Assembly (NCBI RefSeq): GCF_045037415.1
Contig: NZ_CP173438.1
Reading direction: 5' to 3' (one strand)
DNA from: Escherichia coli
GTDB lineage: Bacteria; Pseudomonadota; Gammaproteobacteria; Enterobacterales; Enterobacteriaceae
DNA length: 64,000 nt
The position numbers are program-made. Below are positions 19,480 through 22,400 of the stretch, one piece after another. The stretch's first letter is position 1; each line of letters starts with the position of its first letter.

Positions 19480-22400
19480 TAGTTTGTACACCGTCCGGCA
19501 CTCAATCGCCAAAAGAAAAAAGCCAGCAGATAATCACTGCTGGCGTGGCGATTAACACCAATACTCAGTCACACATGATGTCCGCAAATCAGTAGTCAGA
19601 ATGACTCCCCTCCCATTGCATCAGTTCTTCAAGCATGGTTAATCGTTGTGGGACGCTTAACCAACGCAACCAGCACAACTTCGCTGTCGCGGTAAAATAG
19701 TGCTGATAAAACTGACGCATGGGGCACCTCCTTGCTTCATCGTTAGGAATTATTGACTTAATATAGGGAAAATAAAATTGCTGTCTTTTGCGCAGGAGTT
19801 CCCCTTTTATGCCATCTGCTCGTCTGCAACAACAGTTCATCCGCCTGTGGCAATGCTGCGAGGGTAAATCTCAGGAGACCACGCTCAACGAACTGGCAGC
19901 GTTACTGAGTTGCTCGCGTCGTCATATGCGCACCCTGCTCAACACCATGCAGGATCGCGGCTGGCTGACGTGGGAAGCGGAAGTCGGGCGCGGTAAACGC
20001 TCGCGTCTGACATTCCTCTATACCGGGCTGGCGCTTCAGCAACAGCGAGCGGAAGACCTGCTGGAGCAGGATCGTATCGACCAACTAGTGCAGTTGGTTG
20101 GCGACAAAGCGACTGTGCGGCAAATGCTGGTTTCTCATCTGGGCCGCAGCTTCCGCCAGGGGCGGCACATCCTGCGCGTGCTCTACTATCGTCCGTTGCG
20201 TAATCTGCTACCTGGCAGCGCATTGCGCCGTTCTGAAACCCATATCGCCCGGCAAATCTTCAGTTCGCTAACGCGCATAAATGAGGAAAATGGGGAACTG
20301 GAAGCAGACATCGCACACCACTGGCAGCAAATATCACCGCTTCACTGGCGTTTCTTTTTGCGTCCAGGAGTCCATTTTCACCATGGTCGTGAACTGGAAA
20401 TGGACGATGTGATCGCCTCTTTAAAACGAATCAATACGCTTCCGCTCTATTCGCATATTGCTGACATTGTGTCGCCGACGCCCTGGACGCTGGATATCCA
20501 TCTCACGCAACCGGACCGCTGGTTGCCGTTACTGCTGGGGCAAGTTCCGGCAATGATCCTGCCGCGCGAATGGGAAACCCTCAGTAACTTTGCCAGCCAT
20601 CCCATCGGCACCGGTCCGTATGCGGTGATCCGCAACAGCACCAATCAACTGAAAATTCAGGCATTCGATGACTTCTTCGGTTACCGGGCATTAATCGACG
20701 AAGTTAACGTCTGGGTTCTAACGGAAATTGCCGACGAGCCAGCCGGAGGGCTGATGCTGAAAGGGCCGCAGGGCGAGGAACAAGAGATTGAAAGCCGCCT
20801 GGAGGAAGGTTGCTATTATTTACTGTTCGACAACCGCACCCACCGCGGGGCGAATCAGCAAGTCAGGGACTGGGTAAGCTATGTGCTTTCTCCGACGAAT
20901 CTGGTCTATTTCGCCGAGGAACAATACCAGCAACTCTGGTTCCCGGCTTATGGACTGCTCCCCCGCTGGCACCATGCCCGCCCGACACATTGCGAAAAAC
21001 CCGCCGGGCTGGAACATCTCACCCTGACCTTTTATCAGGATCATATTGAACATCGAGTGATTGCCGGGATCATGCAGCAGATTCTGGCGAGTCACCAGGT
21101 CACGCTGGAAATCAAAGAGATCAGCTACGATCAGTGGCATGAAGGAGAGATCGAGAGCGATATCTGGCTTAACAGCGCCAACTTTACGCTGCCGCTGGAT
21201 TTTTCGCTGTTCGCGCACTTGTGCGAGGTGCCGCTACTCCAACACTGTATTCCGATCGACTGGCAAGCCGACGCCGCCCGCTGGCGCAATGGCGAAATGA
21301 ACCTGGCGAACTGGTGCCAGCAACTGGTCGCCAGCAAAGCAATGGTGCCACTTATCCACCACTGGCTGATCATTCAGGGGCAACGCAGTATGCGCGGCCT
21401 GCGCATGAACACCCTCGGCTGGTTCGATTTTAAATCAGCGTGGTTTGCACCACCGGATCCATGATTGCTGGTTGATAACAAAATCACTACACTAACGCCG
21501 TTCTCAACGGGGTGCCACGCAGCCGCGTGCGCTGAGAAAATACCCGTCGAACCTGATCCGGATAACGCCGGCGAAGGGATTTGAGGCTCCTTCTCAAGTC
21601 CTTTGCCACTCTTTTGTGAGGTGCAAAGTGTTAAAAAAATGTCTTCCCCTGCTGTTGCTGTGCACAGCGCCTGTTTTCGCTAAACCTGTTCTGACTGTTT
21701 ATACCTACGATTCCTTTGCCGCTGACTGGGGACCTGGTCCGGTAGTCAAAAAAGCCTTTGAAGCAGACTGTAATTGCGAACTGAAACTGGTGGCGCTGGA
21801 AGATGGCGTTTCGCTGCTCAACCGTCTACGGATGGAAGGCAAAAACAGCAAAGCCGATGTGGTGCTGGGGCTGGATAACAACCTGCTGGACGCCGCCAGC
21901 AAAACCGGGTTGTTTGCCAAAAGCGGCGTCGCGACAGAGGCTGTAAACGTTCCCGGCGGCTGGAAAAATGACACCTTTGTGCCGTTTGACTATGGCTATT
22001 TCGCCTTCGTCTATGACAAGAACAAACTGAAAAATCCGCCGCAAAGCCTGAAAGAACTGGTTGAGAGCGATCAAAACTGGCGGGTGATTTATGAAGATCC
22101 GCGTACCAGTACACCAGGTCTGGGTCTGTTGCTATGGATGCAAAAAGTCTATGGCGATAACGCCCCGCAAGCCTGGCAGAAACTGGCGAAGAAAACTGTC
22201 ACGGTCACTAAAGGCTGGAGCGAAGCCTACGGCCTGTTTTTAAAAGGCGAAAGCGATCTGGTACTGAGTTACACCACCTCTCCGGCTTATCACATTCTCG
22301 AAGAGAAGAAAGATAACTACGCCGCCGCGAACTTCAGCGAAGGTCACTATCTGCAGGTGGAAGTTGCCGCCCGCACCGCTGCCAGCAAGCAGCCAGAGCT

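Follow-up and report, generated by a model that had tools for sequence, protein, structure and literature searches.

The TPP riboswitch in the leader of the thiBPQ operon of Escherichia coli

The stretch of DNA analysed here (hereafter the window: 64,000 nucleotides of contig NZ_CP173438.1, assembly GCF_045037415.1) is part of an Escherichia coli chromosome, and a 501-nt query taken from it (positions 21300-21800) is 100% identical to many RefSeq strains. With respect to the thiamine uptake locus, RefSeq gives the order sgrR, TPP (thiamine pyrophosphate) riboswitch, thiB, thiP, thiQ (Table 1), and the 163-nt gap between sgrR and thiB is explained by the riboswitch; no plausible open reading frame (ORF) was found on either strand of this leader. 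When the whole window was compared with 4227 Rfam families, the TPP covariance model RF00059 matched positions 21498-21597 of the plus strand with 66.1 bits (E = 9.2e-11), against a gathering score of 54.3 bits, and the match is untruncated, running from position 1 to position 105 of a 105-position model. A permissive Rfam scan of 21350-21750 on both strands returned the same match (E = 5.8e-13); the only other match there was a chance one that reflects a hairpin (17.5 bits, where the gathering score is 90). The feature “riboswitch, TPP riboswitch” in the annotation of strain SK1144, itself 100% identical over that 501-nt query, by the Prokaryotic Genome Annotation Pipeline (PGAP) converts to exactly 21498-21597 of the window, and the aptamer so defined ends 31 nt 5' of the thiB GUG, on the same strand. 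The leader (148 nt) is present as a single copy in 5398 of 5426 complete E. coli genomes (99.5%) and is labelled “riboswitch” in all rows among the matches listed.

A preliminary description, made from the sequence alone, had placed a TPP riboswitch ahead of thiBPQ at 21495-21600 and had proposed a covariance-model scan with RF00059 as its check. That scan gave the significant match just described, above the curated threshold, and the RefSeq feature and the downstream operon likewise bear the proposal out. Each of the hallmarks that it quoted is found a single time in the 64 kb of the window (GGGGTGC at 21509, CTGAGAAAATACCC at 21532 and AACCTGATCCGGATAACGCCGGCGAAGGGA at 21550), and its assignment of the leader to a thiamine ABC (ATP-binding cassette) transporter operon agrees with the downstream ORFs, which are ThiB, ThiP and ThiQ by NCBIfam equivalog models, all scoring far above cut-off, and by the RefSeq coding sequences (CDS). 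Its interval does enclose the aptamer but leaves out the expression platform, which reaches the start codon at 21628-21630. It had also called the element expected biology, and rightly: the thiB TPP riboswitch is already known, publicly annotated and experimentally dissected. It belongs to the three canonical TPP riboswitches of E. coli and serves as a model for how translational riboswitches sense their ligand cotranscriptionally (kinetically). Through it, TPP exerts feedback control over thiamine import at the RNA level; for the window, the significance of the element is one of correct annotation only, and current understanding is unchanged.

The aptamer is a three-way junction whose helices P1-P5 are all canonical in the window; like many bacterial members, it lacks the family model's optional P3a stem. 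Both pocket sequences are present, CUGAGA in J3-2 and ACCUGAUC...GG.UAA..CC.GCG.AGGGA in P4/P5 (the pyrophosphate sensor); they align with the consensus at posterior probability '*' and are invariant in 54 orthologues. For the K-12 allele, direct and selective binding of TPP is documented by mutants of the binding site as well as by single-molecule fluorescence resonance energy transfer (smFRET) and RNase H probing (PMC8609307, PMC11487190, PMC10578472). Because the two alleles differ only in loops, the window aptamer should bind TPP as well.

The full switch extends beyond the aptamer, to about 21630. The linker's 3' half, UCUCA (21592-21596), is an exact copy of the P1 5' strand (21502-21506) and constitutes an “invader” strand. 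In the anti-P1 hairpin, a core of 10 bp joins 21577-21586 to 21592-21601 and can be extended by pairing 21570-21576 with 21602-21607, an extension that uses up the sequestor's 5' strand as well as the 3' strands of both P4 and P5. The sequestor core consists of CUUUGC (21601-21606) paired with GCAAAG (21623-21628); its distal 3 bp lie on the Shine-Dalgarno (SD) sequence GAGG (21618-21621), and the first G of the GUG start codon is itself paired within the hairpin. The leader of the window, in other words, has both components of a translational expression platform: P1 and anti-P1 pairings that exclude each other, and a helix over the SD and start codon. A terminator scan found no intrinsic terminator in it.

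Considering all of this, the segment from 21498 to about 21630 on the plus strand is almost certainly the 5' leader of the thiBPQ (tbpA-thiP-thiQ) mRNA and a TPP-OFF riboswitch, and its best-supported mechanism is a kinetically controlled OFF switch on translation initiation. In this scheme, of which the dependence on TPP, the control at translation, the linker's part and the kinetic window have been demonstrated experimentally with this RNA, a weak constitutive promoter would set the transcription start at about 21498-21500, and the first ~90 nt would fold into the three-way-junction aptamer, with P1, P2/P3 carrying the CUGAGA pyrimidine pocket and P4/P5 carrying the pyrophosphate pocket. TPP bound while RNA polymerase (RNAP) is between pauses at about 21603 and 21616 would lock P1 and keep the linker single-stranded; with P1 locked, the hairpin 21601-21606/21623-21628 and the pairing of GAGG would hide the SD and the GUG, so that the 30S subunit could not load. 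When TPP is absent, the linker UCUCA would displace the P1 5' strand and zip with 21577-21586 into the anti-P1 hairpin, and the extension of this hairpin into P4/P5 and the sequestor 5' strand would dismantle the aptamer and leave the ribosome-binding site accessible.

Table 1. Features of the sgrR-thiBPQ region of the window, and P3 inserts in orthologous loci (L-numbers are our handles for compared loci)
Feature	Coordinates	Strand	Basis or remark
sgrR	19809-21464		RefSeq; NCBIfam equivalog far above cut-off
Putative weak sigma-70 promoter (-35 TTGCTG 21465-21470, 17-nt spacer, -10 TACACT 21488-21493)	21465-21493	+	Sequence inference
TPP-binding aptamer (THI element)	21498-21597	+	RF00059, full length; identical RefSeq feature
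P1	21502-21507 with 21581-21586	+	cmscan alignment
P2	21508-21513 with 21540-21546	+	cmscan alignment
P3	21514-21520 with 21525-21532	+	cmscan alignment
J3-2, CUGAGA (pyrimidine sensor)	21532-21537	+	cmscan alignment
P4	21552-21554 with 21575-21577	+	cmscan alignment
P5	21558-21561 with 21568-21571	+	cmscan alignment
Anti-P1 / antisequestering hairpin (ON)	21570-21607	+	Minimum-free-energy folds, conservation, published SHAPE-Seq, smFRET and mutants
Aptamer-to-platform linker, 10 nt (Berman nt 90-99)	21587-21596	+	Sequence, alignment, published mutants
SD-sequestering hairpin (OFF)	21601-21630	+	Predicted in every fold; core 6 bp invariant
Published RNAP pause sites 104, 117, 136	21603, 21616, 21635	+	PMC8609307, PMC11487190; mapped with +1 = 21500
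thiB (tbpA), periplasmic thiamine/TPP-binding protein, GUG start	21628-22611	+	TIGR01276, 2e-192; RefSeq CDS
thiP, ABC transporter permease	22587-24197	+	NF006953, 1195 bits; RefSeq CDS
thiQ, ABC transporter ATPase	24181-24879	+	NF008039, 2.9e-135; RefSeq CDS coordinates transferred from L001
P3 insert, ~136-143 nt (Citrobacter, Raoultella, Pseudocitrobacter and others)	L004:1266-1400, L010, L012, L030, L039, L041, L053, L063, L074/L075
P3 insert, 217-220 nt	L032, L038
P3 insert, 82-83 nt (Klebsiella version)	L058, L068, L070
P3 insert, 41-44 nt (Citrobacter)	L009, L014, L015, L019		Remnant of insert termini

The same RNA has been dissected at the same locus of E. coli K-12 (Berman 2023, PMC10578472; Grondin 2024, PMC11487190; Chauvier 2021, PMC8609307), and the published numbering fits the window with +1 at 21498 (Berman) or at 21500 (Grondin, Chauvier): G17, UCUCA at nt 5-9 and 95-99, G35, G121 (SD), U130 (GUG) and C144 (toeprint) all map onto the expected bases. 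The binding-site mutants G17C and G35C lose TPP repression (PMC10578472, PMC11487190), and a sequestor-weakening mutant loses the TPP response; deletion or randomisation of linker nt 95-99 makes the switch constitutively OFF, while nt 90-94 are dispensable (PMC10578472). Cotranscriptional SHAPE-Seq (selective 2'-hydroxyl acylation read by primer extension and sequencing) together with mutagenesis favours a transient antisequestering stem that competes with P1 (PMC10578472), and smFRET and anti-P1 mutants back the anti-P1 stem (PMC8609307). TPP lowers the toeprint of the 30S subunit at C144 (window 21643) 2.2-fold, and TPP sensing is about 5.7-fold faster cotranscriptionally (PMC11487190). It is limited to the interval between pauses 104 and 117; once pause 136 is reached, the anti-P1 stem is in place and TPP no longer acts on the RNA (PMC8609307). 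The thiB promoter is not TPP-regulated (PMC11487190), and the Enterobacter thiBPQ orthologue has likewise been scored as translational (PMC12632268).

A quite different output would be that of a Bacillus-type attenuator, in which TPP lets an intrinsic terminator form in the leader. Many Firmicutes TPP riboswitches are transcription attenuators with an intrinsic terminator and work in this way, and the terminator scan did report one terminator-like site, at 21650-21669. That site, however, lies inside the thiB signal-peptide codons and has 6 pairs (3 G-C), shuffled sequences averaging 0.6 such sites, and no G+C hairpin followed by a U-run stands between the aptamer and the start codon. Moreover, single-round in vitro transcription yielded the full-length product only, at all TPP concentrations (PMC10578472). 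With no terminator in the leader, a weak, chance-level site in thiB and a full-length product in vitro, we reject an intrinsic-terminator attenuator as very improbable.

For a comparative view of the switch, a ThiB-guided scan of one genome per species gave 80 loci, 79 of which have a homologous leader, the exception being cut at a contig end. Leaders were anchored on CTCA[AT]CGGGGTGC; an anchor on GGGGTGC was rejected, as it picks an sgrR-internal site in L069, L071 and L078. The resulting alignment (A1) holds 54 distinct short-form leaders from about 20 genera, and to these the following figures refer. In the OFF structure 97.5% of the cells are paired, versus 28-51% with the partners slid by 1-3 columns, and the values for the individual helices P1-P5 range from 96.6 to 100%. 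All of the covariation is in P3, where both sides have changed at 5 of the 7 pairs: two-sided changes occupy 44 cells of P3 (about 15 expected) and 47 of the whole OFF structure (16 expected), and none of 500 shuffles reaches the observed values. The strands of P1, P2, P4 and P5, the anti-P1 strand, the linker's 3' half, UCCUUUGCC (the sequestor core) and AGGUGCAAAGUG are invariant or nearly so. Within the linker the 3' CTCAA is conserved at about 98-100%, and the 5' half (21587-21591), like the sequestor loop, varies freely; this conservation pattern is the same as that of the deletion experiments in the literature. For the ON structure 96% of the cells are paired and all changes are one-sided; for anti-P1 the paired share is 95%. 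For the distal part of the sequestor there are two registers. Register A, with a bulged C, is 99.0% paired and shows one-sided U/C changes; register B, with a 2x2 internal loop, has one compensatory pair next to a pair that is broken in 19 of the 54. Both are 96-99% paired, and neither is decisively better.

Several observations nevertheless weigh against reading the window in this way. The minimum-free-energy (MFE) fold of the 142-nt transcript (-48.4 kcal/mol) holds the anti-P1 and SD-sequestering hairpins together, and the explicit OFF (-36.6 kcal/mol) and extended ON (-33.3 kcal/mol) structures are both well above it, so nearest-neighbour energetics alone give no clean switch. The invariance of P1, anti-P1 and the sequestor core is a sign of constraint and no covariation proof; within the aptamer, P1, P2, P4 and P5 do not vary among these leaders, and covariation speaks neither for nor against them. 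Regulation in vivo is modest, about 2-4-fold (PMC11487190), and transcriptional fusions and Rho-mutant chromatin immunoprecipitation (ChIP) indicate an extra mRNA-level effect that is disputed in the literature. The window allele is not identical to the experimental K-12 RNA (21521-21523 and 21616). With respect to the first of these points, since the MFE holds both hairpins, SD exposure in the ON state would depend on the extended antisequestor and on kinetics, and the energy result agrees with the published cotranscriptional decision and with the ambiguous SHAPE data obtained after equilibrium refolding. The anti-P1 and SD hairpins both appear in unconstrained folds. Unconstrained MFE folds of the aptamer alone and of the leader (z -1.7 to -2.0) do not recover the three-way junction, as is expected because that fold is ligand- and tertiary-stabilised, and the MFE aptamer folds were used neither for nor against the aptamer.

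We found no support for a chance resemblance or a decayed, non-functional riboswitch relic. The base of P4 does hold a non-canonical juxtaposition, G58-A77, where the family consensus has G-U and the thiB aptamer of the window G-A. Set against such a reading are the E-value of 9e-11, a core that is invariant across about 20 genera while the flanking loop and linker bases vary, the retention of the element in 99.5% of E. coli genomes and its directly published function. Given this E-value, conservation and function, we reject it, its probability being close to nil.

The transcriptional fusions raise another possibility, namely that the main output is at the mRNA level: TPP would lead, early in thiB, to termination by Rho or to decay by RNase E, and occlusion of the ribosome-binding site would be no more than a trigger or by-product. 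TPP indeed represses transcriptional lacZ fusions that include 12 codons of thiB 1.6-3.9-fold, even when the GUG is mutated (PMC11487190), and ChIP with quantitative PCR in the rho R66S mutant gave thiB a Rho termination score of 3.0 (PMC5499598). However, an SD mutant abolishes the mRNA-level effect, which thus depends on ribosome binding, and the toeprint shows direct exclusion of the 30S subunit (PMC11487190). Bicyclomycin, furthermore, is without effect on TPP repression of a 4-codon reporter, a result that speaks against Rho at least for that construct, and only full-length RNA is made in vitro (PMC10578472). To us an mRNA-level main output seems unlikely, though by no means far-fetched; mRNA-level control, whether by Rho, RNase E or another factor, is compatible with translational control as a second layer, not as a replacement for it.

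The non-identity of the window allele concerns few positions. Relative to a K-12-type genome, the window has AGC instead of GUA at 21521-21523 in the apical loop of P3, G instead of U at 21616 in the loop of the sequestor hairpin, 2 nt 5' of the SD, and one synonymous change at 21645 in thiB codon 6; it is an allelic variant only. Paired, ligand-contacting and experimentally mutated bases are all unchanged, so the results obtained with K-12 should hold for the window allele too. Position 21616 coincides with the published pause site 117, which bounds the TPP-sensing “hotspot” on its downstream side. The G found at 21616 creates an in-frame GUG 12 nt 5' of the annotated thiB start, which is why a mechanical ORF list starts thiB at 21616. 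The allele occurs at >=99% identity in 1148 of 5398 complete E. coli genomes (about 21%). Perhaps it shifts pausing, and hence the kinetic TPP threshold or the basal expression of thiBPQ, relative to K-12; we hold this idea to be improbable, but if it were true the window allele could serve as a natural experiment on kinetic riboswitch control.

With respect to the other E. coli TPP riboswitches, that of thiM (the crystal-structure model, with translational control and Rho termination inside the ORF) shares with thiB the P3a-less aptamer, an SD-sequestering platform of similar size and the anti-P1 logic, and the secondary structures of the two have been called “very similar” (PMC11487190). It differs in its locus and in controlling the biosynthesis genes thiMD, and its mRNA-level effect needs 34 codons, versus 12 in tbpA (PMC11487190). 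The thiC riboswitch has in common with thiB the TPP aptamer, pause-bounded cotranscriptional sensing and the anti-P1 stem (PMC11487190, PMC8609307), but it is larger, has a Rho-binding site within the riboswitch itself (PMC11487190) and has a Rho termination score of 12, against 3.0 for thiB (PMC5499598).

A simple sigma-70 consensus scan of 21300-21750 gave nothing at a threshold of 9 of 12 positions. The hexamers of the putative promoter in Table 1 are weak matches that we infer from the published +1 and from conservation, TACACT or TACAAT being conserved 5' of the aptamer in other genera. In about 1,047 of 5,399 E. coli genomes, including O157:H7, an islet of about 1 kb encoding the type III secretion system (T3SS) effector EspY2 separates the stop codon of sgrR from the promoter of thiB. 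After this islet (L082:2997-4000) the sequence becomes homologous to the window again from about 21463/4, so that these genomes keep both the putative promoter and the riboswitch. The espY2 islet is absent from the window (junction 21463-21464).

In Citrobacter, Raoultella, Klebsiella, Pseudocitrobacter and relatives, an enterobacterial repetitive intergenic consensus (ERIC) element or its decayed remnant is found inside P3 of the thiB aptamer (Table 1). The insert carries the 3' 16-mers of both ERIC-PCR primers, whose sequences are literature-confirmed, and it recurs as a repeat dispersed among intergenic regions, the median being 10 copies in an E. coli genome; for these two reasons we identify it as ERIC. 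It folds as a long hairpin that replaces the distal part of P3 (z = -5.3), and motif matching shows the remainder of the aptamer, with its ligand-binding core, to be intact in 17 of 19 long-form loci, the other two being without the strict 3'-core pattern. When 20 orthologous loci were held against the Rfam gathering threshold, 10 passed and 10 fell below it, nine of the latter with a P3 insert and the tenth being L076. We rejected riboswitch loss as the cause of these failures at the insert loci, for which the large P3 inserts are responsible; automated annotation would miss the insert-bearing riboswitches because they are below the gathering score. A literature search of limited extent found no published description of ERIC within the P3 of a thiB aptamer. 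In the window itself no ERIC copy was found, and its P3 is short and insert-free, the equivalent site being the P3 loop at 21519-21526.

Three of these loci have further peculiarities. Citrobacter sp. wls619 (L010:1357-1500) seems to have another ERIC-like insert (…GTCATACTTCAAGCTGCAGACGCGTTGGC…), placed after the linker/sequestor 5' strand and before the thiB SD and lengthening the expression platform by about 130 nt. In L076, from a Pluralibacter metagenome-assembled genome (MAG), only the 3' part of the leader is present (L076:1411-1497), from the P5 3' strand on, and unrelated sequence stands in place of the aptamer's 5' two-thirds; either the riboswitch is disrupted or the assembly is chimeric. 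Finally, L041 (CACSKA010000010.1), labelled “Chryseobacterium sp. 18061”, has an enterobacterial sgrR-riboswitch-thiB arrangement with ERIC in P3 and a ThiB that is 86% identical to that of E. coli, and the assembly is probably mislabelled or contaminated.

Elsewhere in the window, Rfam matches mark other RNA elements. The small RNA SgrS, a known regulator of the glucose-phosphate stress response, lies at 19515-19741 on the minus strand (RF00534, 226 bits), divergent from sgrR and with sgrT annotated within it in RefSeq. The known leader/attenuator of the leucine operon is at 14609-14757 on the plus strand (RF00512, 147 bits), 5' of leuABCD. A match to naRNA4, a nucleoid-associated non-coding RNA of the repetitive extragenic palindrome/bacterial interspersed mosaic element (REP/BIME) type, covers 42737-42829 on the plus strand (RF02564, 64.8 bits; gathering score 59.5) and has a 16-nt insertion relative to the model.

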